Shown in pieces: positions 2,312 through 53,331 of a DNA stretch of 55,184 nt. A model generated the notes under the pieces. That model was not told where the DNA came from. It did no database searches and was given only the letters and a program-made list of their open reading frames with translations. The first letter of the stretch is position 1; every line of letters starts with the position of its first letter. The DNA lies in the sequence record DRR378314_499. One strand, written 5' to 3'. Made by a program: the position numbers and the translations under genes.

Positions 2312-2371
2312 CGCCAGGCGGATGATCTCAGGTGATGTTTTAAAATAACGAAATGGATTATAATTTTTCAT
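2312..2371 (-). mobile_element. IS6 transposase 5' remnant
   Basis: Minus strand reads MKNYNPFRYFKTSPEIIRLA, the IS6 transposase N-terminus; DNA similar to 5212-5265. Confidence 0.8.
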
Positions 2372-2534
2372 TCCAAGATCTTATGGAATGTCTGCGATAC
2401 AGTCAAAGATCGGTTCTCCTCTGACAGTTCCCCTCTTACACTATCCTTCCAGTCGCACAGCCAAGATTTGCACAGCAGCTTGCGACATTTTTGAAAAGCC
2501 TTTAAAAAACGGAAATTATAAGAAGGAACTAGTA

Positions 2535-3509
2535 GTGACTTCAGGCACCAATAACGACAATCATCAAAGTGTCCTTTTCACCGGACCCACGACTTTTATG
2601 AATGTCCCGCATTCCGTGGACCCAAAAGGCAGCTTAGCTGCGATCATTGGTGTTCCTTTTGATGCAGGAACCAGTGCAGAGCGAGTTGGATCGCGCGGAG
2701 GACCATCAGCTATTCGGCAGCAATCCTTATTGCTGGATCACTACCAACCACCACAAACCACCTATAGCCCGATTGAAAAACTAAATCTGGTAGATTGCGG
2801 TGATGTCATCCTCGTACCAAGCGTTGTAGAAACTTCGTTGCAACAAGCAGAAGCCGCAGCAAAAAACATACTCGCTGCTGGCGTTGCTCCCGTTGGTTTT
2901 GGCGGTGATGGGATGGTTTCGCTGCCCCTATTACGAGCTGCGGCAGCCTATTTTGACGATTTAGCTGTTCTTCATATTGATGCCCATACAGATACGTATC
3001 GCAGCTTGGGCAACACAATTACTGATCGATACAACACTGCGACCACATTCACGCGGGCTGCAGAAGAAAAGCTGATCGATACACAAAGCTCCTATCATAT
3101 TGGTATTCGCGGAACCGCGTCTCAAGCGGATGTGTTTGAGCATACACAAAGCCATGATTATACCATCATAAGCGCGGATGAACTCTTTAGCCGGGGCTTG
3201 AGAGAAACAGGGCAACGGCTCCAAACAGACCTTTCCGGAAAATCCGTCTATTTGTGTTTTGATATGGATTTTTTTGATCCATCCTGTGCGCCAGGCGTTT
3301 GTAGCCCCACATGGGGCGGTGCAACTGCGCGCGAAGGATTTGAGTTTCTTCGGGGTCTCAGTGGCATTGATTTTGTAGCAGCCGATATCAATACAGTCTC
3401 GCCTCCCCATGATTTGGGCGGTATGACCGCATTGCTGGCCGCACATGTTACATTTGAAATTCTAACTCTTTTGTGTAATGCGCCGACAATCAAAAGCAAA
3501 ATCGTCTAA
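2535..3509 (+). CDS. Ureohydrolase (agmatinase/arginase family), atypical active site
   Basis: GVPFDAG, GSRGGPSAIR, DAHTD, DMDFFDPS..PG motifs; likely GTG start at 2535 after AAGGAA. Confidence 0.85.
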   Translation: MTSGTNNDNHQSVLFTGPTTFMNVPHSVDPKGSLAAIIGVPFDAGTSAERVGSRGGPSAIRQQSLLLDHYQPPQTTYSPIEKLNLVDCGDVILVPSVVETSLQQAEAAAKNILAAGVAPVGFGGDGMVSLPLLRAAAAYFDDLAVLHIDAHTDTYRSLGNTITDRYNTATTFTRAAEEKLIDTQSSYHIGIRGTASQADVFEHTQSHDYTIISADELFSRGLRETGQRLQTDLSGKSVYLCFDMDFFDPSCAPGVCSPTWGGATAREGFEFLRGLSGIDFVAADINTVSPPHDLGGMTALLAAHVTFEILTLLCNAPTIKSKIV

Positions 3510-4812: not shown

Positions 4813-5329
4813 GGTGCTGTCAGATGATTGCGACTTCGTCTTCACATGGCGAAGATGGGATAACAGCGCCCCTACCAATGCAGCACTAAGCCGCTACTAC
4901 TCGGCAAGTACGGTGGTTCTTTGACGCTTGGAAACAAAGGCTTCCAGCATTTGGCCCTCGTGATCGACGGTACGTCACAGGGCATAAATTTCCCCATTTA
5001 TCTTCCCGGAAACTTCGCCCAGATGCCATTGCCAGTTTGGGTGACTACGGGAAGACGGATGAAGTCGTTTCTTCCGGATCTCATTGGCAAATAGGGGGCA
5101 AACCCGTTCCACCAATAGCGGACCGTTTCAGGGCAAATATCAATACCGCGTTCATGTAGCAGATCTTCGATATTTTACGGAGAAAGCGGAAATCTGACGT
5201 ATATCATCTCAGCCAGGCGGATGATCTCAGGTGAAATTTTTTGAACTAGCGAAAAGGGTTCAATTTTATCCTGAGCGGAAACTAGTCGACGTACAAATAG
5301 CCATCAAGTCATTTTCGTCTGACAACGCC
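4813..5329 (-). mobile_element. Internally deleted IS6-family element with both ends
   Basis: Imperfect IRs GGTGCTGTCAGATGA (4813) and GGCGTTGTCAGACGA (5329, minus); broken transposase SPEIIRLAEMIYVRFPLS..EDLLHERGIDI..ETVRYWWN..WQWHL..VDHEG joined to a decayed C-terminus. Confidence 0.85.
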
Positions 5330-5339
5330 ACTGAAGCCG

Positions 5340-6401
5340 CTAGTTTTCCGTCACCGCGTCCTGGAAGTTTATGGTTCCGTCTGCATTTTTCTTAAAGGCC
5401 TGACCAAAGGCATTGGAAAAAATACTGATAATACTGGACCACACATCTCCTTCGGGATCATTGAGGTCGCCTTCAAGGGGAACCCGGATGGCAAATTGAT
5501 CTTTTGGCTGGTTTTCAAACAGCTCTAACACAGCAGCTGCTATCGATTGCCACAGAACATTCAAAGGATTATCGTCTGACTGGGCGTTGGCCATTGTAAC
5601 ATTTGTTGCAACAAGTTTGACATATCCTGTCATATCGCCATCTGCAGCGGCAGTCTCGCTGAAAATACCGATGCGGCCCTTTTCGAAATCGACCGCGGCA
5701 AAGGCGCGGCTGTAATCGTTAAACGCTGTCAGCGCCGCTTCCTTCAATTCCACATTAACGTCAAAATCCGGTATGTCTTTGAAAATATTCAATTGAGCGT
5801 CAACGGTAAGCGCCCCTCCGCCGATGGAAGTTCCCGTAATTTTGACGGTTGAGGGCAAAGGCTTATCCTTATCCTTCACATTCCGTAGATTTTTCACTTC
5901 TGCGTCGATATTGTCGATGAAAAGATTAACATTCGGCTCAGCCGTGTAGTCAATATAACTGACTTTACCCCCTTGAGCAGTCAGCCGGTTTATGCCTAAA
6001 GGTGTGAGCGCACGCACGAATTTACCCCAGCCTGCACCCTCGCCTGTTTGGGTCTTTGAGAAGTTTACGTTCGCATCGTAGATATCAATTTCTCCGACGA
6101 TGGCCCCCTTGAAAAGGGCTTCCCATTCGATAGATAAATCGATCTTGCGACTGGCAAAGAAAGGCGCGTTAATTTTTTTGTCTGTTTTATGGATCTCCAA
6201 CCCATGGATCACATAAGCCCCGCGCCAAAGATGTAAATCGATACCCTCCACTCCACCGCTATAATCATCAAGAAGGGCGATCTGCTCGTTTACATAATCC
6301 TTTACCCAAAACGGCAGATAGAGTCGGACGGAGACCAAGATGGCAGCGATAATCACTACGATTCCAACTATTTTGACTTTTTTACTGTGTATATCGACCA
6401 T
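5340..6401 (-). CDS. DUF748/AsmA-like envelope protein
   Basis: N-terminal TM, RLYLP..VKDYVN, DLHLWRGAY, NQPKDQFA.RVPLEG; ATG at 6401 with AAGAGG RBS. Confidence 0.75.
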   Translation of the reverse strand: MVDIHSKKVKIVGIVVIIAAILVSVRLYLPFWVKDYVNEQIALLDDYSGGVEGIDLHLWRGAYVIHGLEIHKTDKKINAPFFASRKIDLSIEWEALFKGAIVGEIDIYDANVNFSKTQTGEGAGWGKFVRALTPLGINRLTAQGGKVSYIDYTAEPNVNLFIDNIDAEVKNLRNVKDKDKPLPSTVKITGTSIGGGALTVDAQLNIFKDIPDFDVNVELKEAALTAFNDYSRAFAAVDFEKGRIGIFSETAAADGDMTGYVKLVATNVTMANAQSDDNPLNVLWQSIAAAVLELFENQPKDQFAIRVPLEGDLNDPEGDVWSSIISIFSNAFGQAFKKNADGTINFQDAVTEN

Positions 6402-6414
6402 GGTTGATCCTCTT

Positions 6415-7284
6415 TTATTTTTTCCTGACGAGTTCGGTGGTTTTGATCCGATGTTCTCTATGTTCGTGCGTGTACGTTTTTGAAAATTCAGCACCGATCA
6501 GGAGAATTAAACAGGAATAGGAAATCCAAATCATGACGAGGATAACGGAGCTGGCAGCCCCGAAACTGGACTGGGGCTGGGCGAACAAAAAATAGAAGCT
6601 AAGGGCATGTTCACCAATTGAGAACAAGACAGTCGTTAGTAGTCCTCCATAAAAGGCAACCCGCAAATCCACCTCAACATCAGGGAGTATTTTGAAAATA
6701 AGGGTGAAAAGAACAGTGACGATAAGAAACGAGAAGGCGTTACTGAAAATGATTAACCCTTTCGCCAGATCAGGCGAGAACTGAGTTGCGAGCCATTCGC
6801 TAAAAATATTAAAGAAAGTGGTGAGTGATAGCGAAATGAGCAGCAAGAAGCCTATTATCAAAATCAGGCCGAAAGAGGTCAGCCGACTTTTCAAGAAAAG
6901 CATCCAGCCAGCTGTTTTCTTCACTTCCACATCCCAAACACTGTTCAAAGACCGCTGAAGCTGAGAAAATAGCCCTGTTGCGCCAAAAGCCAATGTCACA
7001 CCGCCTGCGATCATCGCCCAGAAATCACGGTCTTTCTGTTGCGTTTCTTCGACGATTTTCTGAACGCTTTGAGACGCGTCTCTGCCAAGCATATCATTGA
7101 TATGCCCCAGTACTTCCGATTCAACCCGTTGTTGATCAAAAAATATTGCCGCAATTGACATTATAATGATGAGGAGCCCGGGAAGAGACAGTATGGCGTA
7201 ATACGCCGCCGCCGCACTTTGCGTAAAGGGATCGTCTCTCAACCAGTTCTGTAATGTCTTTTTTAAAACAGTGATAAAAAACAT
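6415..7284 (-). CDS. YihY/virulence factor BrkB family membrane protein
   Basis: SAAAAYYAILSLP, GATGLF.QLQRSLNSVW, FGAASSVI...W..YS..ILL.GAEF. Confidence 0.9.
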   Translation of the reverse strand: MFFITVLKKTLQNWLRDDPFTQSAAAAYYAILSLPGLLIIIMSIAAIFFDQQRVESEVLGHINDMLGRDASQSVQKIVEETQQKDRDFWAMIAGGVTLAFGATGLFSQLQRSLNSVWDVEVKKTAGWMLFLKSRLTSFGLILIIGFLLLISLSLTTFFNIFSEWLATQFSPDLAKGLIIFSNAFSFLIVTVLFTLIFKILPDVEVDLRVAFYGGLLTTVLFSIGEHALSFYFLFAQPQSSFGAASSVILVMIWISYSCLILLIGAEFSKTYTHEHREHRIKTTELVRKK

Positions 7285-7387
7285 CTTCACTCCTGCACGG
7301 CGGCTTTTATCTCTTCCGATAAGTTATCCAAAACGCCCCAATTGCGCTTCAGATAACAAGTATACATCTTCAGAGGGGATTTGCAGT

Positions 7388-7579
7388 TTACCGCGTAGCA
7401 ATAATATAGACGGCATGAACAATGCCCGGTACGAAGCCAAACAGGGTCAGGATCAGGTTAATCCAGAAGTGTTTGCCCAACCCCACTTCGAGTAAGACAC
7501 CGAGTGGTGGGAGAATTACGGCGATCAGAATTTTAATCAGGTCGCTAAACAGGCTGTCATTTGTTCTTGCTAAAGGCAT
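7388..7579 (-). CDS. YqaE/Pmp3 family small membrane protein
   Basis: ILPPLGV...FWINLILTLFGFVPGIVHAVYII. Confidence 0.92.
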   Translation of the reverse strand: MPLARTNDSLFSDLIKILIAVILPPLGVLLEVGLGKHFWINLILTLFGFVPGIVHAVYIIATR

Positions 7580-7758
7580 TCTTTCAAATCTCCGCGTCTA
7601 TAGGTTCTTGTTTTAGTGCATCATCAAGCGCGTCAGTCATTTACCCGGTCGGTTCACATATCAAGACAGGCAAAGGAGTTGAAATAATCAAAAAATCCCC
7701 AAGCATTAATTTCAAAACCTTGATAGCCCATTCCCTTTGACCAACGAATATGGCCACT

Positions 7759-7783
7759 AACAACCGAACGGCAATTTAGTTCC
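7759..7783 (-). promoter_or_regulatory. ECF promoter P1 (towards pmp3-yihY-DUF748)
   Basis: GGAAC-taaattgccgttcggtt-GTT(agt). Confidence 0.7.
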
Positions 7784-7877
7784 CAATTTTTTTAAGATTT
7801 TTATTCTGCGGTCGGGAATAGACTAATCATACAGGTGCATCCCCATCGTTGCCTAGGTTTGGAGCCGGCAATTGGTT

Positions 7878-8879
7878 TTAGCTAAGGAGCGTCTGATCTT
7901 TGGTTTCAAGTTTCGGTTTCTCGGCTTCCGGGTCAGCACTGCTAATCTCGATTTCCGAAGGTACAGGTCCAGCCTTTACGGCTTCCTTGCCCTCACCTGG
8001 TGGATTAGTCTCCTGCGGATAACCGGAGCCGGCATTTCGAAAGTAAATCAGCTGAGGATCCGTTGGATCAATCTCGTTGGCCTCGAAAGCCTCTTTTATG
8101 GCTTGCACGACGCGTGAACGGGAAACGACTTCTGCCGATCTTTGGGAATGGATCCACCAGCGTAATTTTATCCCGAGTGAGGTGGCTCCCAATTCCCAGC
8201 ACAATATTTGGGGCGCCGGATCTTTCAGAACTTCGTCGATCTGGCTGAGGGAGGAATTTATGATCGTCATTATGAAGCGAATATCATGCTCATACCCGAC
8301 GGTAAGATCAATTTCCACCCGCCGCCGAAGTTGCGATGTTTGGATGGTCACGATGTTGGTATATATGGTCGTGTTGGGAACAACGATATCCCGTCCATCA
8401 AAAGTCTGGATGATCGTTGCGCGCGGCTCGATGCGCAATACTGTTCCTTCCGCCGTATCGACTTTGATCTGATCCCCGCGCCGGAACGGCGTCCGCAGCA
8501 ATATCAACAATCCGGCGAGCCAGTTCTGGAGGATATCTTTAAAGGCAAAGCCGATCGCAAGGGACCCTAAACCAAAGCTTGCGAGAAGATCGACGGGCTT
8601 AATAGAGGGAATAATAATCGTGATTGAAACCATAAACCCGACAAAAACGAAAGCCCAAAACGTGAAGCTTGCGAGAATTCGACCGAGATCGATACGATCC
8701 TTCCTCTTAAAATAAGCCGCAACCGATTTGCTAAGGCCCAACCCTATAAACCCGATCAGGATAAAGGCGACAGTTCCAACAATCATGGTCGGCAGGAGGG
8801 TGTAGAAATCATTGCTCCACCCCTGGATCGTGCCCAGAGCAAGGGTTACACCGTCTGTAAAGGTTGGATCACTTGCCAT
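7878..8879 (-). CDS. MscS family mechanosensitive channel
   Basis: Three TM segments, GLGSLAIGFAFKDILQNWLAG, PFRRGDQI, EGTV, VVPN. Confidence 0.92.
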   Translation of the reverse strand: MASDPTFTDGVTLALGTIQGWSNDFYTLLPTMIVGTVAFILIGFIGLGLSKSVAAYFKRKDRIDLGRILASFTFWAFVFVGFMVSITIIIPSIKPVDLLASFGLGSLAIGFAFKDILQNWLAGLLILLRTPFRRGDQIKVDTAEGTVLRIEPRATIIQTFDGRDIVVPNTTIYTNIVTIQTSQLRRRVEIDLTVGYEHDIRFIMTIINSSLSQIDEVLKDPAPQILCWELGATSLGIKLRWWIHSQRSAEVVSRSRVVQAIKEAFEANEIDPTDPQLIYFRNAGSGYPQETNPPGEGKEAVKAGPVPSEIEISSADPEAEKPKLETKDQTLLS

Positions 8880-8938
8880 TTCGCCTTCTCAATATTCCTT
8901 AATCGCAATTTTTCAGGATTGATTTTTGATAATCAACT

Positions 8939-8963
8939 AACAACATATTGACGAGAAAGTTCC
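8939..8963 (-). promoter_or_regulatory. ECF promoter P2 (mscS)
   Basis: GGAAC-tttctcgtcaatatgtt-GTT(agt). Confidence 0.8.
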
Positions 8964-9058
8964 ATTTCCGCGCTAGTGCTTTTATGTCAAACTACCTGTT
9001 TATGGTAAATTTGTCCCCATGTGAAGCAGGAACTCAGCTCCGAAATGGGCTATTTGAG

Positions 9059-9083
9059 GGAACTATTTCGCTTCCAATTAGTT
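9059..9083 (+). promoter_or_regulatory. ECF promoter P3 (hypothetical gene and mgtC)
   Basis: GGAAC-tatttcgcttccaatta-GTT(ggt). Confidence 0.8.
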
Positions 9084-9118
9084 GGTTGTCAGGCTGTATT
9101 TACGAAAGGAACAACGTC

Positions 9119-9394
9119 ATGAGTACTGTACCAAAGACCGTGGAAGAAATGTTGGCCGACCCCGCCGCTGCCTTTAACACACCGCAAGATGTCTTCGATA
9201 ACAAAGATCTCGGCGAACATGAAAAAAGTGAAATTTTACGCACCTGGGAAGAAGATGCGGAAGCTCTTCTGCGCGCTGAGTCCGAAGCCATGGACGCGCC
9301 AGAGAATTCATCCCGTGCGCCACAATTACTTAAGGAAATTTCCAACTTAAGGTTGAAATTGGATAAACTACAGAAAGAAAAAGATGATCGCTGA
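9119..9394 (+). CDS. Conserved-looking hypothetical protein, 91 aa
   Basis: AAAGGA RBS, ATG at 9119; DPAAAFNTPQDV...EK.EILRTWEEDA...A.SEAM pattern; overlaps the mgtC start. Confidence 0.7.
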   Translation: MSTVPKTVEEMLADPAAAFNTPQDVFDNKDLGEHEKSEILRTWEEDAEALLRAESEAMDAPENSSRAPQLLKEISNLRLKLDKLQKEKDDR

Positions 9395-9896
9395 TCTGGA
9401 GTTCGGCCTTACCTATATCTCGTGGCAGGAACTTTTATTGCGGGTCGGACTGACAATGGCTTGCGGCCTCATATTGGGGCTTGAAAGAGATACTAAAAAC
9501 AAGCCAATTGATTTTCGTGCGTATATGGTTATCGCGGTTACAACCTGTATGTTGGCCGTTCTGGGGCAAGAGGTTTATGCCGATTTTGCCTCGGCCAAGG
9601 AGATCGCAAGAGTTGATCTTGCCAGCATTATTGCGGGTGTTATGTCGGGAATAGGGTTCCTGGGCGCGGGCGCGATCATACATCGGGGTGATAATCGCGT
9701 GATTGGCACCGCCACAGGTGCGAGTATCTGGGCTTCCGGGGGCATAGGTTTGGCCATCGGATTTGGAATGTATAGCCTTGGTATTGTAGCCTTTTCGGCC
9801 ATTGGCATAATTTTGCTGGTCGGAGGTATTATTAGAAAACGGTATGTTGGTACAGGGGGCCCGGATAGCGAGGAAGAGTTTTCCACAGACCAATAG
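9384..9896 (+). CDS. MgtC/SapB family membrane protein
   Basis: GLILGLER, GIGFLGAGAII, TGASIWA.G.IGLA.G.G. Confidence 0.92.
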   Translation: MIADLEFGLTYISWQELLLRVGLTMACGLILGLERDTKNKPIDFRAYMVIAVTTCMLAVLGQEVYADFASAKEIARVDLASIIAGVMSGIGFLGAGAIIHRGDNRVIGTATGASIWASGGIGLAIGFGMYSLGIVAFSAIGIILLVGGIIRKRYVGTGGPDSEEEFSTDQ

Positions 9897-9969
9897 CTGA
9901 GATCCCGTTTTCCTGGCGCAAGTCAGAATAAAACAATCTAATAATGATATTGCTTTAATGCAGAAAAGT

Positions 9970-10008
9970 TGGGAGCGCCGCACATCATATGCGGCGCTCC
10001 CATTTTTT
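9970..10008. terminator. Intrinsic terminator between convergent mgtC and csbD
   Basis: TGGGAGCGCCGCA-7nt-TGCGGCGCTCCCA followed by T run, A run upstream. Confidence 0.8.
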
Positions 10009-10214
10009 TAGGATGCTTGATCTTTTTCAAATTCAGCAAACATGGTTTCGGCTTCATCTCTGGTGACTCCGTAATTTTCCTGGATCTTTCCTAAGAAAAT
10101 TTCACGGTCACCATTTATTTGATCCAGATCATCATCTGTCAGCTTACCCCATTTTTTCTGGGCCTCGCCTCTGATCTGTTTCCATTTACCTTTAATAATA
10201 TCTTCGTTTACCAT
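10008..10214 (-). CDS. csbD: CsbD family stress protein
   Basis: NEDIIKGKWKQIRGEAQKKWGKLTDDDLDQING. Confidence 0.95.
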   Translation of the reverse strand: MVNEDIIKGKWKQIRGEAQKKWGKLTDDDLDQINGDREIFLGKIQENYGVTRDEAETMFAEFEKDQAS

Positions 10215-10246
10215 CTATTTGTCCTTCCCAGATTGCGCCAACAGGC

Positions 10247-11077
10247 TCAGTTAGCATCTGATTTGTATTTGGTGATTAACGAGGATTTCTTTTGGGGGAG
10301 TGTAACTTTATAATCCTCATCGTCCATTTTGACGAGCTTCGCGTTATCGTAAGCCAAGCTGATTTCTTCACCGCCGAGCCCTAAAATTTTGTCAAACTCA
10401 ACGATCAAGTGGCTGGCTTGACCATTTTTAAAGGTGACGTCACCGACATCGCCCAAATTTTCACCTTTCACGTTCACAAGCTTGGCACTTAGAAGCTTCT
10501 CAACGCTGTAGGCATTTTCAGGCATCATGCGGACATTCTCACCCATTTCTTGTCGATCAAAGGAAAATTCTGCCGCGCGTTCGATAGCTGCTTCAGAAAT
10601 TGGCATCATGATATCGCCTTCAGGGCCCATTTTGACCATTGTGTCATAATCAAAGGCTGCCAGTTTACCCATCCCAAAAAAGTCACCGTCGCCGACAATC
10701 ACCATTTTGGCTTTCCCGTTCTGATCAAGGATGATGTCCTTTACGACACCGACGCGTTCGTCTTGAGCGTTATAGACGGGCTCACCGATAATGCCCTCTG
10801 CCGTAGCCTTGGTATTAATTTTGGCGTTTTCAATATCGAGCTTGTCATCATTTTCACTGAAGACAAATGCTTTGAAATCTTTGTAAAACGCTTTCGTGGC
10901 GTCCGCGGTATCGGTGGCGGCTTTGTCAACCGCATCTGTGGTTTTCTCCCAACCCTCTTTCACTTGCTCTTTGGCTTGTTCAGTTTTGCTTTCGTCCGCC
11001 TTTGCAGTTCCAGCAAGCGCGGAAGAAACACTCATAAGGGCGATGATCGATACCGTTGTTAAAATTTTCTTTTTCAT
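10247..11077 (-). CDS. Secreted protein with two PRC-barrel domains
   Basis: Signal peptide; IIGEPVYN..ERVG.VKDIILD and LLSAKLVN..GENLGDVGDV repeats. Confidence 0.8.
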   Translation of the reverse strand: MKKKILTTVSIIALMSVSSALAGTAKADESKTEQAKEQVKEGWEKTTDAVDKAATDTADATKAFYKDFKAFVFSENDDKLDIENAKINTKATAEGIIGEPVYNAQDERVGVVKDIILDQNGKAKMVIVGDGDFFGMGKLAAFDYDTMVKMGPEGDIMMPISEAAIERAAEFSFDRQEMGENVRMMPENAYSVEKLLSAKLVNVKGENLGDVGDVTFKNGQASHLIVEFDKILGLGGEEISLAYDNAKLVKMDDEDYKVTLPQKKSSLITKYKSDAN

Positions 11078-11121
11078 GTTTCAATCCTTTTTTGGGTGCA
11101 TAAAAACTTACACATAGGACA

Positions 11122-11146
11122 AACAGCGAATACCGGAAAAGGTTCC
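11122..11146 (-). promoter_or_regulatory. ECF promoter P4 (PRC-barrel gene and csbD)
   Basis: GGAAC-cttttccggtattcgct-GTT(tgt). Confidence 0.8.
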
Positions 11147-11154
11147 AACCTTCT

Positions 11155-11179
11155 GGAACTTTCCGTAACTCGGTGTGTT
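11155..11179 (+). promoter_or_regulatory. ECF promoter P5 (PA2169-like gene), back-to-back with P4
   Basis: GGAAC-tttccgtaactcggtgt-GTT(ggt). Confidence 0.8.
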
Positions 11180-11227
11180 GGTAGAAGTATCGAAACCTAG
11201 TGAACTCAAAATGAGAGAAGGCAAATT

Positions 11228-11713
11228 ATGCCAAAAACGGCAATAGAAATGCTAAATGATCTCATCGTCACCTGTGAGGACGCGCGCGAATTTTATGTCA
11301 AGTTGTCGTGTCGGACAAACAGTCGGGAGTTGAGGGAAATCCTTCTAAAAGTGGTGTCAACTCATGAAAGCACCATTATTAACCTGGAATCCCATATCGA
11401 CTCATTGGCGGAAGGCGCGGGGCAGGATACGGACATATCGGGTCGGCCTTCGACTATTTTCAAACATCTGTTATCCGTGATTGATAGTACGGATCTTGTA
11501 TTGACAGAGTATCTTGAGGCCGCAGATAACGAAGCCCTTGAGCGGTTTCAAAAGGCGCTTGAAAGTGAGCCGCCTGAGGAGACCATAAATTTAATTGAGC
11601 GGCAGGCCAAAATCCTCAGCCAAACCCAATCCCACTCAAAATTTGTGAAGGACAGTCTACAGAAAGACCGTTCAGGAACAGGCCCCTTGATTAAGAAGCG
11701 GTCGCAGCGATAA
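11228..11713 (+). CDS. PA2169/DUF2383 ferritin-like four-helix bundle protein
   Basis: IEMLNDLIVTCEDAREFY, L..HI..L, ALERFQKALE pattern. Confidence 0.7.
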   Translation: MPKTAIEMLNDLIVTCEDAREFYVKLSCRTNSRELREILLKVVSTHESTIINLESHIDSLAEGAGQDTDISGRPSTIFKHLLSVIDSTDLVLTEYLEAADNEALERFQKALESEPPEETINLIERQAKILSQTQSHSKFVKDSLQKDRSGTGPLIKKRSQR

Positions 11714-11746
11714 AATAAAGTAAGAGTATAAATTTTATCCGTTTTT

Positions 11747-11974
11747 TTGGCCAGTTTAATTCCGTTTAAACCCATTGCGCATCGTGATGTTAGGGTGTTT
11801 GATTTTGCGCGCCTGCAATTTGCAACAATTTCGATCATCACAACTCTTTTTGTGATCACACTATTGCCGATGAACTGGCTGAGCCTGGCTTTCATCGCGA
11901 TGTTGCTTGTAACTGTTGTTCGTCAAACTTCCTGTGTTGTGCGTCTATTAAGCTTCACTCATGGGGTAAGCTGA
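11747..11974 (+). pseudogene. Possible N-terminal fragment of a membrane-anchored endonuclease/exonuclease/phosphatase (YafD-like) gene
   Basis: VRVFDFARLQ followed by two hydrophobic segments resembles the RxFDFPRxQ N-terminus; catalytic domain absent. Confidence 0.45.
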
Positions 11975-11975
11975 A

Positions 11976-12194
11976 CTATTTGTTTGGAACATTAGCTGCC
12001 GCAATGCGTTGCGCTTCTTCCATATTTCCGGCGGTACCACTGGCTACGATGGTGCCGTGTATCGCGACCCCCCAATTCCAAATTTCTGCGGATTGCTCGA
12101 AATCCGGGGATGGCTCGCAATCTGCTTGCTGTTGCTCCACAATTAATTCGTACTCACCTAATTCTGTACAAAATTTTTGAGGGATCCAATCCAT
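11976..12194 (-). CDS. Hypothetical protein, about 72 aa
   Basis: ORF MDWIPQKF...WNWGVAIHGTIVASG.A..MEEAQ; purine-rich leader; alternative start at 12242. Confidence 0.55.
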   Translation of the reverse strand: MDWIPQKFCTELGEYELIVEQQQADCEPSPDFEQSAEIWNWGVAIHGTIVASGTAGNMEEAQRIAAANVPNK

Positions 12195-12343
12195 ATTTCT
12201 TTCTTCCGCAAAAACCCCAACGGGTTTAGTTAAAATATTCATTCAAGGCTAATTATTTCAGAATTGAGAGGCGAAGGGAAGTAGGCTTATTATTACTAAC
12301 CCCTTGGAGTCGCAAGTGAACGGGCGGATAAAGTGTATTTTTT

Positions 12344-12378
12344 AAAAAATAAACCCGCCTGTTTAAGGCAGGTTTATT
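12344..12378 (-). terminator. Terminator downstream of the DUF883 gene
   Basis: AATAAACCCGCCT-gttta-AGGCAGGTTTATT with adjacent A run. Confidence 0.65.
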
Positions 12379-12460
12379 AAGTCTCAACGGGTGCAACAGA
12401 ATACCGGACAAAAAGGTCTAATTTGCTTCAGGTACCTGCCCGCAACGTCGGTTTTAACCT

Positions 12461-12748
12461 TTAGTTGCGGCTCCGCATCAGAAGGCTTGTCAGAAATCCG
12501 GCGGCAAAGGCGATGACGATGCTCTGACCGGGTCTTTCTTTGACTCTGTCTTCTACTTTTTCAAGACCCTGAGCTCCATGGTCTTTTAGTTCACCAAGTC
12601 TTTCTTTGGCTTTTACCCCGAGGCTTTCTGCTTGATGGATGCCGTCACGCTTAATGCTATCCGTAAGTTCGGACAAGTGTTTTTTTACCGCTGCAAGATC
12701 CTCTTTCAACTCGTCAATTTCAGGATTAGTTTCAGCAGACTTAGCCAT
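12461..12748 (-). CDS. DUF883 (ElaB/YqjD) family membrane-anchored ribosome-binding protein
   Basis: ELKEDL, VKERPGQSIVIAFAAGFL C-terminal TM. Confidence 0.88.
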   Translation of the reverse strand: MAKSAETNPEIDELKEDLAAVKKHLSELTDSIKRDGIHQAESLGVKAKERLGELKDHGAQGLEKVEDRVKERPGQSIVIAFAAGFLTSLLMRSRN

Positions 12749-12782
12749 TTTAAAACTCCTTCTCGTTTCATGTGAATTTACA

Positions 12783-12807
12783 AACAGATAAAGAAAGAAA
12801 AAGTTCC
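12783..12807 (-). promoter_or_regulatory. ECF promoter P6 (DUF883)
   Basis: GGAAC-tttttctttctttatct-GTT(tgt). Confidence 0.8.
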
Positions 12808-12825
12808 CCGGCTAAGGTTCTAGCC

Positions 12826-13542
12826 CTAGTCAAGCGGCGTGTACATATAGCCGACACCTCGCATGGTCTTGATAAGTTTAGAGCCGTCTTCACCAAGTTT
12901 TTTGCGAATGCGGCCTATTTGTATATCGATTGCGCGATCATAAATATCATACTCGCCGTCTCGGGTCCGTTCGAATAATTGCTCTCGGCTCAGGGTTCGT
13001 TTGGGCGCCTTTACCAAAGCTTCCAGCAACTGAAATTCGCCGATCGTGATCTCGATGGATTTGCCGTTTCCATCAAAAACCTGATATTGATCGCGATCCA
13101 GAGTGAATTTGCCAAAGGTAAGGGTTTCAGTCTCGTTCTCGACACCGGTCGTTGTCGGCTGATCCATTTTAATTTCCCGGACCCGCCTTATCGCAGCCTT
13201 GATCCGCGATTTTAGCACTCTCAGTTCAAGAGGTTTTGTCAGATAGTCATCGGCTCCAACTTCCAAGCAAATGATTTTTTCCGTGACATCATTTTTTTCG
13301 GTGACGACGAATATATGTGCAGATGTGGACTGTCGAATAACACGGATAAGGCTGACTGCATCCATATCGGGGAGCGCAAGATTAACCAAAATAATATCAA
13401 TGTTACTGGTTTGAACTAGCTCCGAGGCTTCTGAGCCGTTTTTCGCCGTGATAACAGCGTAACCTTCTGCTTCGAAATATTGCGTCAGCATGCCCCGGAA
13501 TCCTTCATCGTCATCGATTGACAGGATCGAACCCCTATTCAT
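12826..13542 (-). CDS. OmpR-family response regulator with Asp-to-Asn phosphoacceptor substitution
   Basis: Receiver SIDDD...IILVNLALPDMD...GADDYLTKP plus winged helix DRAIDIQIGRIRKKL...TMRGVGY; ATG at 13542 after AAGAGG. Confidence 0.9.
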   Translation of the reverse strand: MNRGSILSIDDDEGFRGMLTQYFEAEGYAVITAKNGSEASELVQTSNIDIILVNLALPDMDAVSLIRVIRQSTSAHIFVVTEKNDVTEKIICLEVGADDYLTKPLELRVLKSRIKAAIRRVREIKMDQPTTTGVENETETLTFGKFTLDRDQYQVFDGNGKSIEITIGEFQLLEALVKAPKRTLSREQLFERTRDGEYDIYDRAIDIQIGRIRKKLGEDGSKLIKTMRGVGYMYTPLD

Positions 13543-13593
13543 CCTCTTTATCTCCATTTCGAAAACGAGGACCCAATCGGCCTCATACAATAA

Positions 13594-13620
13594 TGTTACA
13601 AACTATTTCACGATTGTTAC
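13594..13620. promoter_or_regulatory. TGTTAC direct repeats 21 bp apart, candidate OmpR-type operator
   Basis: TGTTAC at 13594 and 13615 with TTTCAC between, in the divergent regulator/sigma intergenic region. Confidence 0.45.
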
Positions 13621-13701
13621 TCAGGGGAAATTCCCCGGTTAAGTCGTTCAAATAGCCTCCTTTTATACGTTTAAAAAGCGTCCTAAAAAAGGAGTAGGCA
13701 A

Positions 13702-14193
13702 ATGTTTAACAATCAAGAATTGACCAAAGAAATGATCGGTCTCAGGAGTTTTGCGCGCCGACTCACCCACAACAACCATGACGCAGATGACTTGCTTCAG
13801 TATACGCTATTGAAAGCGATTGAAAAGAAGCACTTGTTTCAAGAAAATACAGACCTTTTCAAATGGACATCGAAGATCATGTACAATCGTTTTGTTTCTG
13901 ATTACCACCGTAAAGCAAAATATGAAACGAAATTTGATCCGGAAAGCTTTCTGAAGGCTGAAACAATAGATCCACCGCAAGTTAAGCAAATTGAGATGAA
14001 TGATGTGAATGAGGCCATGAAAATGCTGTCCCCTGAGCATTGGGAAATTCTCGTTCTGATATGCGTCCAGGATCTGAGTTATCAGGAAGTCTCTGAGTTT
14101 CTGAAAATCGCAATTGGTACGGTTCGCTCCCGCCTTTCGCGCGCGCGCGGGCAACTACAGCAGCTTCTTGAAGCCCCAATAGTGGTGAATTAA
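13702..14193 (+). CDS. ECF RNA polymerase sigma factor
   Basis: Region 2 LRSFARRLT..DADDLLQ..W...IMYN; region 4 LSYQEVS..L.I.IGTVRSRLSRAR; AGGAG RBS. Confidence 0.95.
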   Translation: MFNNQELTKEMIGLRSFARRLTHNNHDADDLLQYTLLKAIEKKHLFQENTDLFKWTSKIMYNRFVSDYHRKAKYETKFDPESFLKAETIDPPQVKQIEMNDVNEAMKMLSPEHWEILVLICVQDLSYQEVSEFLKIAIGTVRSRLSRARGQLQQLLEAPIVVN

Positions 14194-14252
14194 ATATCCT
14201 TTTTGGAAATCTGGTTTCCATATCCTTGGAGTTTCTCAAAAACCTAGTATGA

Positions 14253-14290
14253 AAAAATAACGGCGCTTCAGTTGAAGCGCCGTTATTTTT
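14253..14290. terminator. Bidirectional terminator
   Basis: Perfect 18-bp inverted repeat AAAAATAACGGCGCTTCA-gt-TGAAGCGCCGTTATTTTT. Confidence 0.88.
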
Positions 14291-14331
14291 AATCTGCTCA
14301 AACCAACAGTTCGAGTTCCGAAAATTAAGAC

Positions 14332-14508
14332 TTAGATCCGCGGCCCGCGGCCTCTAACGACGTGTACGATAGCGCCAACCACGAACAGAACTATGAAGAC
14401 CACAAATATGATTTGTGCAATTCCTGCGGACGCAGAAGCAATCCCGCCAAAGCCAAACACTGCAGCAACCAGTGCAATTAATAGAAATGTTATTGCCCAC
14501 CCTAACAT
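14332..14508 (-). CDS. DUF1328 family small membrane protein (58 aa, absent from the ORF track)
   Basis: [44 protein letters not shown]...; AGGAGAG RBS. Confidence 0.93.
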
Positions 14509-14545
14509 CAGGTCTCTCCTTTAACTTGTTTCATTTAGAGATACA

Positions 14546-14570
14546 AACGACGTTGTGTCTGAAAAGTTCC
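14546..14570 (-). promoter_or_regulatory. ECF promoter P7 (DUF1328)
   Basis: GGAAC-ttttcagacacaacgtc-GTT(tgt). Confidence 0.82.
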
Positions 14571-14675
14571 CGGAGATTTAAATTTTGTTCAAATTCATTC
14601 AGCATAGCCGGTTGTCAAAAATAAGTGATGTGGTGGGCCGTTGATAATTTGATGCATAGGCTATACAGTTGAGAC

Positions 14676-14858
14676 ATGAATTTTAATGGTTTTGAAGAAG
14701 AAGACATTCAAGAGTATGTGGACAATCTGCTGACACCGAAAGAGGCGCGGCGCATAGAAACTGTTATTTCCGCGAACCCTGAGGCCCGAGACTATTATTT
14801 AAAGCAACTGAGGCAGAAGGAATTGCTTAAAGCCTGGTGGAAGAATTCACAGAATTAA
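14676..14858 (+). CDS. Small soluble anti-sigma-domain-like protein (60 aa)
   Basis: EEDIQEYVDNLLTP.EARRIE..I..NPEA resembles the cytoplasmic N-terminus of RsiW/PrtR-type anti-sigma factors; no TM or sensor domain. Confidence 0.6.
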   Translation: MNFNGFEEEDIQEYVDNLLTPKEARRIETVISANPEARDYYLKQLRQKELLKAWWKNSQN

Positions 14859-14923
14859 GGACAGGATCCCATACTTCGCTACATCCGCATTACATTTCCA
14901 TAGCAAAATACTTCTTATTGTAC

Positions 14924-14948
14924 GGAACCAAATGGACTGTCAGTTGTT
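14924..14948 (+). promoter_or_regulatory. ECF promoter P8 (AI-2E gene)
   Basis: GGAAC-caaatggactgtcagtt-GTT(ctt). Confidence 0.75.
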
Positions 14949-14972
14949 CTTTTATGAAAAGGACGTTCCGTA

Positions 14973-16061
14973 ATGCAACAAGCTAAAAAATTAAAACCTG
15001 AAACGCTGCGTGTTGCCCAGGAGCGTAGAAGCAGCATTGAAGCGGCTGTAAAACTGTCAGTTATTTTTGTTGGGCTTTTTGTATTTGTCGCAACACTACA
15101 TTTTTCCAAAATCATTCTGTCCCCAATTTGTCTTGCGATCATCATCGGGATAATGTTCGGTCCGATTGCGGATCGGATAGAAAAATATCGAATTCCTGCG
15201 TCCCGATCGGCCGCTATCGTTGTTTTACTGTTTATGATCCTTGTTATCGCCGCGATATCTGCATTTGCTGGTCCCCTGTCGACTTGGATTGATCAATTAC
15301 CGAGAATTTGGGCAAGATTGCGTTTTGAGCTCGCCAGTTGGCAGGACACTCTGGCATTGATCACAGATCTGCAGTCCCAGTTGAAAAGTGTAATGAGTCA
15401 GGAGCAAGGGGTAACCGTTGTCGTTGACGATGGTTCTGCCGTTGAGGAGGCCGCTGTCCTCGCACCCACGATTGCAGCACAAATTATCCTTTTTCTCGCG
15501 AGTTTCTATTTCTTTGTCGCCACTCGTCACAGTCTCCGGCACGCTATTTTGAGTTTACCGATCAAGCGGAAAACCCGTTGGAATATGGCGCGGGTTTTCC
15601 GTGAAATTGAAAATAATGTGTCTGGCTACCTGCTTTCCATCACCCTCATAAATCTTGGCATGGGGTTGTGTGTAGCTCTGGCATTATGGTTTTTGGAGAT
15701 ACCTTCGCCGCTACTTTGGGGTATGCTCGCCGCGGTGCTCAACTATGTCGTCTTCATTGGCCCAGCCGTCACATTTGTTGTCCTTCTTGGGGTTGGCCTG
15801 ACCAGCTCAACCGTCCTGTGGGTTGCGGCTGCGCCAGCTCTCGTTTATTTAGCCATAAACCTTCTGGAGGCACAGATTGTAACACCACTGGTGATTGGCC
15901 GCAAAATGACCTTGAATCCATTTATAGTGTTCCTTGCCATCGTGTTCTGGATTTGGCTCTGGGGGCCACTCGGCGGGTTCATCGCTGTGCCGTCGCTTCT
16001 GATCCTTTTCGCAATATACAATCAGATGCTTGTCAAACCGCAGAAAGCCAATGTCCGCTAA
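14973..16061 (+). CDS. AI-2E family transporter
   Basis: Multi-TM; YLLSITLIN, LWGMLA..LNY, LNPF.VFLAI.FW.WLWGP.GG. Confidence 0.9.
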   Translation: MQQAKKLKPETLRVAQERRSSIEAAVKLSVIFVGLFVFVATLHFSKIILSPICLAIIIGIMFGPIADRIEKYRIPASRSAAIVVLLFMILVIAAISAFAGPLSTWIDQLPRIWARLRFELASWQDTLALITDLQSQLKSVMSQEQGVTVVVDDGSAVEEAAVLAPTIAAQIILFLASFYFFVATRHSLRHAILSLPIKRKTRWNMARVFREIENNVSGYLLSITLINLGMGLCVALALWFLEIPSPLLWGMLAAVLNYVVFIGPAVTFVVLLGVGLTSSTVLWVAAAPALVYLAINLLEAQIVTPLVIGRKMTLNPFIVFLAIVFWIWLWGPLGGFIAVPSLLILFAIYNQMLVKPQKANVR

Positions 16062-16239: not shown

Positions 16240-16683
16240 ATGCTTAATGACGATGAACCAGCCTTCAAGCCTATAACGTGGAATCATGTATTCGAAATGG
16301 GGCATTCAGCCGTTGATGCTGACCACCTAAGCCTTGTCAAAAAGACGAACACGCTTCTAGAAATGATCGCTCTAGAGTCCGGCGCTGGGACCGGGCCAAT
16401 TATTTCATTGGTAAAGGCGATGCGAGAAGATTGTTATCAGCACTTCGTTTGTGAAGAGCAAGTAATGCAGATGTTGGATTTTGTGGGAATGAACGAACAT
16501 ATCAAGGAGCATCGTCGGGTCGAAGGAGTGATAGACGGCATCCTTGACCGATTGAGAGAGTTACCGGAAGGGGGACCTGAATTTCGAGAACTCGTCCTGA
16601 CCTTTCGGATGTGCCTACTTGACCATATGCTCCACTATGATCTGAAGTATAAATCTCACTTTATGAACTCAGCTGGTTATTGA
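16240..16683 (+). CDS. Bacteriohemerythrin family protein
   Basis: W...FEMG..VDADH, HF..EE..M, H..EH, H....D di-iron ligand pattern. Confidence 0.85.
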   Translation: MLNDDEPAFKPITWNHVFEMGHSAVDADHLSLVKKTNTLLEMIALESGAGTGPIISLVKAMREDCYQHFVCEEQVMQMLDFVGMNEHIKEHRRVEGVIDGILDRLRELPEGGPEFRELVLTFRMCLLDHMLHYDLKYKSHFMNSAGY

Positions 16684-44416: not shown

Positions 44417-44581
44417 TAAAAGGAGCTAAGAAAATGGAACCACCGTATCCCACCTGCCGTTATGCCAGGTTGTGTGACTGACAGCGATTGATCAGTCCAT
44501 AGAATAGGATCGGTAAACCGGAAAACGTCCGGCCAAGTTGCTGATCTTCCTTAGTATCACTTAGAAGAATTGGGTCAAAAT

Positions 44582-45181
44582 ATGCATGTGATTGTCAAAG
44601 GTAAACAGGTTGATGTCGGAGCCGCTCTTACGGAGTATGTGGAAAACTCTCTGGAAGAGAGGGTCTCGAAATATTTTGACAATGCGATAGACGCGCAAGT
44701 TACGCTCAGTCGCCGAGGGCACGATTTTATCATAGAATGCAATGTTCACCTGGGATCCGGAATAACTGTAGCAGCGTCAGCGAACCATCCAGATGCCCAT
44801 GCCTGTTTTGATGCGGCTGCAGAACGCATTGACAAACAGCTCAGAAGATATAAAAGACGGCTCAAGGATCATCACGGTAAGGAAAGACTGAAGGCAAAAC
44901 AGGAAATGGCGGCCCAGGCATATATCTTGGCACCCGAACCTGAAGAGCCCGAAGACGAGACCGAGGTTGAGACCGAAGCGAACGGTGAATGGCAACCAAT
45001 GATTATTGCCGAAAGCAGTCAAAACATTCCTGACTGCTCCGTTGGTGAGGCTGTGATGAGGATGGATCTGGCGAATTTGCCAGTAATGATGTTCCATAAT
45101 TCGGGAACGAAAGGATTAAATGTTGTATATCGTCGATCAGATGGCAATATAGGGTGGATTGACCCAAGGCTGGAGGGCTAA
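44582..45181 (+). CDS. hpf: Long ribosome hibernation promoting factor
   Basis: KQLRRYKRRL, EAVMRMDL, NVVYRR.DGNIGWIDP. Confidence 0.95.
   Translation: MHVIVKGKQVDVGAALTEYVENSLEERVSKYFDNAIDAQVTLSRRGHDFIIECNVHLGSGITVAASANHPDAHACFDAAAERIDKQLRRYKRRLKDHHGKERLKAKQEMAAQAYILAPEPEEPEDETEVETEANGEWQPMIIAESSQNIPDCSVGEAVMRMDLANLPVMMFHNSGTKGLNVVYRRSDGNIGWIDPRLEG

Positions 45182-53255: not shown

Positions 53256-53331
<76 letters not shown>

Follow-up and report, generated by a model that had tools for sequence, protein, structure and literature searches.

We have analysed a DNA stretch of 55,184 nucleotides from sequence record DRR378314_499 (hereafter, the window), in which a 10.7-kb cluster (5340-16061) gathers genes of families typical for general-stress regulons around an extracytoplasmic function (ECF) sigma factor. 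An initial annotation had named, besides this sigma, a 60-amino-acid anti-sigma-like open reading frame (ORF) and an OmpR-type regulator with a pseudo-receiver, and had stated that PhyR, NepR and a kinase of the HWE type were missing. A scan of 69 ORFs of the window (27 + 42) with family models (Pfam/NCBIfam) bore out the sigma and the regulator, and none of the missing partners was found among the ORFs scanned. Judged from sequence comparisons, the cluster quite probably represents an architecture in which an EcfG-like sigma operates under a two-component layer and a small anti-sigma protein, without PhyR-NepR, the copy in the window being a derivative devoid of the kinase. The best explanation for its origin is a chromosomal general-stress locus of a Sneathiella-like alphaproteobacterium. 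The nearest relatives of the sigma belong to Sneathiella (69-81% identity) and a second tier, with 51-63% identity, to Micavibrio-like and unnamed alphaproteobacterial bins. The regulatory core consists of the following elements:

12826-13542, minus strand: OmpR-family response regulator (listed ORF to 13590; likely start Met17 at 13542)
13585-13643: TG(T/A)(T/A)ACA-type direct repeats in the regulator-sigma intergenic region
13702-14193, plus strand: ECF sigma factor of a divergent EcfG-like lineage
14252-14291: G+C-rich hairpin with A and T runs on its flanks, between the convergent sigma and DUF1328 genes
14676-14858, plus strand: 60-amino-acid soluble anti-sigma-like protein

The five best NCBIfam models for the sigma were PRK12511 (110.5 bits), PRK12546 (106.6), PRK12547 (101.9), PRK12540 (87.2) and PRK12516 (84.0). 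These five are also the best models for three EcfG proteins encoded next to PhyR (L094-L096), which score 126-334 bits, two of the three exceeding at least one of the five cut-offs. Additionally, the sigma shows a marginal match to Pfam PhyR_sigma2; its identity to PhyR-adjacent EcfG amounts to 32-34%. The SigE-fam_strep model gave 78.6 bits versus a cut-off of 141.55. A maximum-likelihood tree was built from 48 rows: 18 family members, seven PhyR-adjacent EcfG proteins and 23 other ECF-size sigmas, the latter drawn from the genomes of one Sneathiella and of four PhyR-positive organisms. The sigma family forms a single clade (support 100/100) on a long stem. A superclade (99/96) unites it with canonical EcfG and with five further paralogues of PhyR-positive genomes, and the canonical EcfG proteins group in a clade of their own (97/92) that does not include it. 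The related genome G001 has roughly five sigma genes of ECF size, none of them within the canonical clade. By its sequence, the sigma is thus a separate deep branch of an EcfG-like superclade, distinct from canonical EcfG. The initial annotation had presented the sigma without seeing this likeness, which is apparent from both the models and the tree.

As for the established ECF groups, an assignment to ECF246 was rejected, since the supplement of the ECF re-classification paper places that group in Leptospira and Paenibacillus; ECF206 and ECF207, the neighbours of ECF15, were rejected as well, their anti-sigmas being of the membrane zinc type at position +1. Micavibrio and Sneathiella are not named in the searched portion of the supplement, and the group may stand in its remainder. 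Another feature of the family is its C-terminus: among 79 complete sigma orthologues, 51 have Ala-Ala as their last two residues, in most cases at the end of an extension of about 20 residues, which is found neither in Sneathiella nor in the window (alignment A1, columns 160-185; L016-L080). This tail resembles a ClpXP-type degron, and possible ClpXP control of the sigma-AntA is mentioned in the re-classification paper (PMC7826278).

Nearly all stress families named in the initial annotation were confirmed by Pfam/NCBIfam; the exception is DUF883, seen as a weak signal in the orthologue from locus L002 only. The genes and the EcfG-type promoter motifs assigned to them are listed by position:

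5340-6494, minus strand: DUF748 protein (PF05359, E 6e-32), without a promoter motif of its own
6415-7290, minus strand: BrkB/YihY-family membrane protein (PF03631, E 2.7e-49; orthologue in L006)
7388-7579, minus strand: Pmp3 proteolipid (PF01679, E 2e-21)
7759-7783, minus strand: EcfG-type promoter motif of Pmp3 (GGAAC-N16-TGTT, 180 nt upstream)
7878-8879, minus strand: MscS-type mechanosensitive channel (PF00924, E 5.7e-16; PF21082)
8939-8963, minus strand: EcfG-type promoter motif of MscS (GGAAC-N16-TGTT, 60 nt upstream)
9059-9086, plus strand: EcfG-type motif with one mismatch (AGTT for YGTT), 33 nt before the ATG (9119)
9119-9394, plus strand: 91-amino-acid acidic protein, family-less (start set to Met58 of the listed ORF 8948-9394), overlapping the MgtC start
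9384-9896, plus strand: MgtC-family protein (PF02308, E 1.4e-24)
10008-10214, minus strand: CsbD-like protein (PF05532, E 4.3e-17)
10247-11077, minus strand: PRC-barrel protein (PF05239, E 1.7e-15)
11122-11146, minus strand: EcfG-type promoter motif of PRC-CsbD, back to back with the motif at 11155-11179
11155-11179, plus strand: EcfG-type promoter motif of the PA2169-like gene (upstream-region alignment)
11228-11713, plus strand: DUF2383/PA2169-family four-helix-bundle protein (PF09537, E 8.8e-12; TIGR02284, E 1.6e-9, below cut-off)
11976-12242, minus strand: 88-amino-acid conserved protein, family-less, for which tblastn finds relatives in equivalent position in many of 80 loci
12461-12748, minus strand: 95-amino-acid DUF883-like protein, with relatives beyond the regulator in 45/77 loci
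12783-12807, minus strand: EcfG-type promoter motif of the DUF883-like gene
14332-14508, minus strand: DUF1328 membrane protein (PF07043, E 1.6e-14), downstream of the sigma in 52/68 loci
14546-14570, minus strand: EcfG-type promoter motif of DUF1328 (perfect GGAAC-N16-CGTT; distance from the start codon 38 nt)
14924-14948, plus strand: EcfG-type promoter motif of AI-2E, 25 nt upstream of the listed start
14973-16061, plus strand: AI-2E family transporter (PF01594, E 2.1e-40; orthologues in L001-L004)
16240-16683, plus strand: hemerythrin-domain protein (PF01814), conserved neighbour, promoter motif not found

The motifs precede at least eight local units, namely Pmp3(-BrkB-DUF748), MscS, acidic protein-MgtC, PRC-CsbD, and the PA2169-like, DUF883-like, DUF1328 and AI-2E genes. 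Aligned upstream regions of the nearest relatives often carry TGTT in place of CGTT, and the promoter signal in the window was therefore counted with YGTT as the -10 element of the clade. In this form (GGAAC-N16-17-YGTT) the window holds ten sites against 1.73 expected, a number reached in none of 100 shuffles, and eight of the ten fall within 7759-14948, inside the cluster; chance does not explain this clustering. The extended motif (KGT form, one mismatch allowed) occurs eight times in the window against 0.93 expected.

Among relatives, the strict form GGAAC-N15-18-CGTT precedes the start of the DUF1328 gene by 34-48 nt in 29 of 54 sources; it also stands, at steady distances, upstream of the genes for PRC (19/35), the DUF883-like protein (18/49) and the 60-amino-acid protein (10/32). 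Upstream of the sigma gene itself it was found in none of 80 sources. The 3.8-Mb genome of G001 contains the extended motif nine times, versus three for a control read in reverse, and six of the nine sites lie within the orthologous 8 kb, so that 'self-contained' is a fair word for the regulon. That the cluster is for the most part a self-contained stress regulon around an ECF sigma of its own is thereby supported, by the clustering of EcfG-type motifs in both the window and G001.

Some details of the transcription units deserve mention. The CsbD gene, with a promoter motif of its own in only one of 27 sources, is probably in an operon with the same-strand PRC gene upstream, and the DUF748 gene may be transcribed from the motif at 7759-7783. 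The AI-2E leader would be short unless the true start is a later Met. The Pmp3 leader, 180 nt long, contains two ORFs of only 25 and 18 codons (7600-7760, minus strand, read by eye). Where promoters are divergent and back to back, their -35 boxes make a palindrome (GTTCC, a few bases, GGAAC), as seen between the PRC and PA2169-like genes of the window (11122-11179) and between the DUF1328 and 60-amino-acid protein genes of relatives (L001-L014). A perfect GGAAC-N16-CGTT at 11986-12010 (plus strand) is antisense within the 88-amino-acid protein gene, and no gene downstream accounts for it. Outside the cluster, GGAAC-N17-CGTT at 44436-44461 (plus strand) precedes by 109 nt the ribosome hibernation factor gene hpf (44570-45181) of an rpoN-hpf-ptsN cluster; hpf may belong to the regulon as an outlier, or the match may be due to chance.

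Among the proteins without family, the 91-amino-acid acidic one has relatives in L006, L014 and L016 and no match in Pfam, and the 88-amino-acid one none in Pfam/NCBIfam. The 95-amino-acid ORF has no Pfam match of its own; its orthologue in L002 matches DUF883_C weakly (E 1.7e-4, below cut-off). In L002 the hemerythrin gene is placed between the gene for the 60-amino-acid protein and AI-2E.

The surroundings of the sigma were surveyed by tblastn of the window proteins on 80 related loci, with denominators given by the loci with enough flank. The regulator, which combines a receiver (PF00072, E 2.1e-23) with a winged helix (Trans_reg_C, PF00486, E 2.7e-21), all named NCBIfam equivalogs being below cut-off, is encoded next to the sigma, in divergent orientation, in 67 of 77 loci, over the whole range of 51-81% sigma identity; its orthologues have 238 amino acids. 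Just after the sigma, in convergent orientation, 55 of 69 loci encode a hybrid histidine kinase of 751 amino acids (CHASE3, PAS, HisKA, HATPase, receiver). Both flanks were of sufficient length in 67 loci; regulator and kinase occur together in 55 of these, the regulator without the kinase in three, the kinase without the regulator in none, and both are missing from nine. The initial annotation had suggested looking for synteny of sigma, small ORF and regulator in other genomes, and it is indeed seen, with the 60-amino-acid protein present in 51 of 64 loci; what had been overlooked is the hybrid kinase, part of the ancestral module and absent from the window.

Nearly all of the 68 regulator-sigma intergenic regions contain, by eye, TG(T/A)(T/A)ACA direct repeats with 11- and 21-22-bp spacing, which sit just upstream of the promoter region of the sigma. 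This layout fits tandem binding by a regulator of the OmpR/PhoB type. In L012, L013 and L015 only the DUF883-like gene stands beside the sigma, and in L006, L031, L067 and L076 the regulator keeps its Asp and the kinase is not adjacent, so that the window is not the only locus to have lost the kinase. No kinase orthologue was found elsewhere in the bins behind L006, L012, L013, L015 and L031, all of them metagenome-assembled genomes (MAGs): partial matches reached 30-41% identity in G007, G012, G013 and G015 and at most 45% in G031, versus 54-92% for orthologues at Sneathiella loci.

The 60-amino-acid ORF had no family match at E<=0.01 in Pfam/NCBIfam; at E<=1 a weak zf-HC2 signal appeared (E 0.016, 15.7 bits versus a cut-off of 22.2). 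Of 31 family members, 14 touch zf-HC2 at this level, the best with 8.3e-4 and none over the cut-off. Their alignment (A2) has no conserved His or Cys column; conserved are two motifs, D-I-Q-A-L-V-D-G/N-E-L towards the N-terminus and Q-K-x-L-L-x-x-W-W towards the C-terminus. The former corresponds to the first helix that characterises class I anti-sigma domains. The gene, recognised by the family profile, is encoded on the strand of the sigma in all 51 loci mentioned above. A model of the sigma together with the 60-amino-acid protein scored 0.75, the best of three controls 0.01; the mark set for such models is reached by 51 of 78 solved complexes and by two of 108 mismatched pairs. At least 70% of the contacts are common to the three runs, and the predicted local distance difference test (pLDDT) of the partner is at least 73. 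To the modelled interface the small protein contributes residues 8-18 and 43-58, among them the conserved L51, W54 and W55, which face sigma residues 97-156, i.e., region 4. The model supports binding of the predicted pair.

NepR was considered as an identity for the 60-amino-acid protein and rejected: it does not match PF18557 and by eye is unlike the NepR ORFs of L094, L095 and L097. The search for solved structures resembling the family returned nothing relevant, the best match being a repeat adhesin, without any stretch passing alone. In L071 (6615-6935, plus strand) the gene directly follows the sigma, like in a classical sigma/anti-sigma pair, and both regulator and kinase are missing there.

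The copy in the window has departed from this ancestral module. Querying the window with the kinase returned only receiver-level likeness to the regulator, and the 139 bp between the stop of the sigma (14193) and DUF1328 (14332-14508), where relatives encode the kinase, hold the hairpin. As the kinase is present in Micavibrio-like outgroups, the window copy has lost it. The regulator reads VNLALPD at the phospho-acceptor site, with the acidic DDD, Thr and Lys retained. Asp occupies this column in 68 of 70 aligned rows, one of which (L036) is the kinase's own receiver, leaving 67 genuine orthologues with Asp; the L065 row is truncated, and Asn was found in the window only. The description as a pseudo-receiver therefore stands for the window, but the trait is peculiar to it and not shared by the family. 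In identity to common outgroups the window regulator reaches 55-57% versus 61-66% for Sneathiella orthologues. The two repeats nearest the sigma are altered, to GTTACT and GTTAAG in place of (T/A)TACA, and the -35 box of the gene for the 60-amino-acid protein reads GGAGA versus GGAAC in close relatives. The lost kinase, the Asn regulator and the altered repeats and -35 together mark the window copy as a kinase-independent derivative. Its regulator could be either a phosphorylation-independent activator or an idle relic, two fates that are equally placed; were it idle, the small anti-sigma would be the main check on the sigma.

From these data a circuit can be outlined. The sigma would read GGAAC-N16-17-YGTT promoters and switch on the local stress genes. 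Its amount would be set by the CHASE3-PAS hybrid kinase, predicted to phosphorylate the divergently encoded OmpR-type regulator, which in turn would bind the TG(T/A)(T/A)ACA repeats of the intergenic region, as CseBC acts for SigE; we infer this from the sigma gene being without a self-promoter. The soluble 60-amino-acid protein, resembling an N-terminal anti-sigma domain, would hold region 4 and damp sigma activity, and since its gene has a sigma-type promoter in relatives, it may act as a negative feedback brake. In the window strain the kinase input would be lost and the Asn regulator either phosphorylation-independent or a relic. We put forward, tentatively and with slightly less than even confidence, that the Sneathiella/Micavibrio-like branch has replaced PhyR-NepR by this three-layer circuit of kinase/regulator, zinc-free 60-amino-acid anti-sigma and, in most members, an Ala-Ala degron, the window holding a stripped form, kinase-free and with a pseudo-receiver.

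The first of these layers could be read otherwise. If regulator and kinase controlled something else (such as their own expression or that of the DUF883-like gene), control of the sigma would be post-translational only, exerted by the 60-amino-acid anti-sigma and, in relatives, by proteolysis at the Ala-Ala end. We regard this as unlikely, given that the divergent regulator is kept across the whole span of sigma identity, that phased direct repeats persist beside the promoter region of the sigma, and that regulator and kinase are kept or lost together, with 55 loci having both and none the kinase only; the three loci with the regulator only and the nine with neither, as well as the window itself with its kinase missing, speak for a purely post-translational control. 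The classical-looking gene order of L071, the Ala-Ala ends of 51 orthologues and the modelled binding of the small protein also suit such control, which nevertheless leaves a sigma gene without a self-promoter in all 80 sources and thus in need of another activator. A self-promoter is usual for ECF sigma genes.

The statement that the cluster is run by a switch other than PhyR-NepR was examined in the genomes of relatives, with Caulobacter vibrioides as a positive control that passed the cut-off in every PhyR and NepR run. The PhyR model NF006623 (cut-off 240 bits) was not exceeded in any of 77 genomes carrying this sigma (5 Sneathiella + 50 + 22), of which the 50 and the 22 were screened at E<=1e-25; the genome of L036 was left out, and L042 and L068 sit in bins already covered. 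In the five Sneathiella genomes the model found the receiver half or, in the sigma itself, the sigma-like half, never both. NepR (PF18557) was found in none of 55 genomes (0/5 at E<=0.1 and 0/50 at E<=0.01), and PF22029 matches this sigma only, in all five Sneathiella genomes. In an even sample of the class (121 genomes, 19 candidates scored per genome), PhyR was over the cut-off in at least 18, a figure of use as a positive control only and not as a frequency, and this sigma family (E<=1e-35) occurred in G001 only, with no overlap between the two. The clade with this sigma hence appears to be without the PhyR-NepR partner switch, as the initial annotation had proposed for the cluster.

It follows that a canonical phyR-nepR-ecfG locus elsewhere in the genome, driving the GGAAC-N16-CGTT promoters and reducing the local sigma to a minor EcfG2-like paralogue, is very improbable. 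Such a locus would have to exist in a strain known from the window alone, the search having covered its relatives, 15 Sneathiella-type genomes at 69-81% sigma identity among them, and holders of PhyR (18/121) and of this family (1/121) are disjoint. The promoter motif of the window does equal the canonical EcfG motif, and additional EcfG copies of the non-canonical kind, without neighbouring regulators, occur in many Alphaproteobacteria (PMC3892343). Yet, the sole PhyR_sigma2-like sequence of the five Sneathiella genomes is this very sigma, and the roughly five ECF-size sigmas of G001 all stand apart from the canonical clade.

The initial annotation had also described the cluster as portable and as an island bounded by tRNA genes, with an IS6 end beside its leftmost gene. 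Only the last point is partly supported, by the following remnant:

4875-5303 (approximately), minus strand: broken remnant of an IS6-family transposase, its stop-free pieces spread over three frames

One piece of it, 5001-5174, matches annotated IS6 transposases on alphaproteobacterial plasmids by tblastn (55-78% identity, E 4e-8 to 2e-7), the best being plasmid-borne transposases of Novosphingobium, Sulfitobacter and Sphingomonas; the match to DDE_Tnp_IS240 is weak (E 0.035). The only tRNA gene that ARAGORN identified in the window is tRNA-Ala (53256-53331), 37 kb from the cluster. Elsewhere the window is ordinary core chromosome, with ppc, lptC-lptA-lptB-rpoN-hpf-ptsN, ABC and TRAP transporters and nitrile hydratase. 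The gene order from CsbD to AI-2E is common to the window and Sneathiella genomes, and the core order (DUF883-like, regulator, sigma, kinase, DUF1328, 60-amino-acid protein) to Sneathiella and Micavibrio-like genomes. A plasmid origin was rejected, as megablast of the 10.7-kb cluster against a plasmid collection gave no match. That the cluster is a mobile island, a portable stress regulon that arrived with the IS6 element, is the least credible of the alternatives, because the adjoining transposase remnant and a G+C content of 0.43-0.49 at 2-18 kb, versus about 0.50 over most of the remainder, are set against the shared gene orders, the empty plasmid search, the distant sole tRNA, the lack of an integrase or second IS end among the ORFs scanned and a sigma tree that is deep and family-wide.

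A number of observations weigh against the architecture favoured here, that of an EcfG-like sigma under a two-component system and a small anti-sigma. With 84-110 bits, the sigma stays under all cut-offs of the EcfG-type NCBIfam models (185-321), and the order of its family versus canonical EcfG is an open fork (support 80/74). In the strict form GGAAC-N15-18-CGTT the window has four sites versus 1.86 expected, and 14 of 100 shuffles reach four. The local sigma, rather than another, is presumed to read the GGAAC promoters, and GGAAC -35 boxes are common to several ECF groups. Likewise, binding of the repeats by the regulator is putative, as is the choice of the divergent gene that it would control. 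The 60-amino-acid family falls below the Pfam zf-HC2 cut-off and is without the HxxxCxxC motif, and because sigma/anti-sigma complexes have been solved, the good score of the complex model may partly reflect likeness to them. Nine loci with the sigma but with neither regulator nor kinase indicate that the two-component layer is dispensable in some lineages. As many relatives are MAGs, single absences of PhyR are not proof, and it is the pattern over 77 genomes that constitutes evidence; for the strain of the window the absence of phyR-nepR is extrapolated from relatives, and such a locus or a relocated kinase may be present there.

The closest known system is PhyR-NepR-EcfG (ECF15), by which, in the accessible sections of two reviews, the alphaproteobacterial general stress response is solely described (PMC8103513, PMC3892343). 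In its canonical layout nepR and ecfG are co-transcribed, phyR is divergent, both units carry general stress response promoters and a kinase with the HRXXN motif is encoded nearby (PMC8103513); the names HWE and HisKA_2 are given to such kinases in a preprint abstract. Both systems are found in the same class, have sigmas of the same superclade and show GGAAC-N16-17-CGTT promoters before general-stress genes, with targets of the same kind (CsbD, DUF883-like, DUF1328, PRC, PA2169-like, Pmp3). A response regulator divergent from the sigma is the only trait of the canonical layout found here. Unlike ECF15, the clade has no nepR beside the sigma and no phyR; the divergent regulator consists of receiver and winged helix and is not a sigma mimic; the kinase is a CHASE3-PAS hybrid of the HisKA type and not one with the HRXXN motif; the sigma gene lacks the self-promoter, whereas canonical units carry one; and the identity to PhyR-adjacent EcfG is limited to the 32-34% given above. 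In the canonical phyR-nepR-ecfG locus of L095 a DUF1328 gene (2371-2535, plus strand), 54% identical to that of the window, directly follows phyR, and DUF1328 thus accompanies the stress sigma locus in both systems.

Control of ECF sigma transcription by a two-component system is a known mode, established for ECF39 and, indirectly, ECF32; besides ECF15, only ECF246 is named with both a two-component system and an anti-sigma in the searched part of the re-classification paper (PMC7826278). Similar to SigE-CseABC of Streptomyces (ECF39), the sigma is accompanied by genes for an OmpR-family regulator and a histidine kinase, which would control its transcription. The systems differ in phylum and sigma group, in the additional anti-sigma-like protein found here, and in the kinase, which is here a cytoplasm-facing hybrid with its own receiver; the present system is known from sequence alone. 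With the class I anti-sigmas (zf-HC2/ZAS, RsrA, the N-terminus of RskA) the 60-amino-acid protein shares the first helix D-I-Q-A-L-V-D-G-E-L, the helical pattern and the predicted contact with region 4. It differs from them in being only about 60 residues long, soluble and devoid of zinc ligands, sensor or membrane part, and in most loci its gene does not directly follow the sigma. NblR, HP1043 and ChxR are phosphorylation-independent regulators of the OmpR/PhoB family, and the window regulator resembles them in its non-Asp acceptor, its receiver and winged helix and the absence of a kinase at hand. In contrast to them, its Asn state is recent and confined to one lineage, 67 orthologues keeping Asp, and may equally be the first step of decay. 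In the literature searched, which did not extend to subscription journals, we found no paper on stress regulation in Sneathiella/Micavibrio or on control of an EcfG-like sigma by an OmpR-type regulator.

Overall, the output side of the system, i.e., promoter code and target families, would be as in the EcfG response, and the input side different. The clade keeps the EcfG-type promoter code and typical targets without either of the switch proteins, and has a conserved module of two-component system and small anti-sigma instead. With six of the nine stringent sites of a related genome within 8 kb, the regulon is compact and therefore easy to test. If our reading is true, natural variants, with the kinase, without it, and with neither regulator nor kinase, would allow the layers to be compared, the protein of about 60 residues would be a minimal anti-sigma, and the input of a stress regulon would have been swapped in this lineage while its output was conserved.

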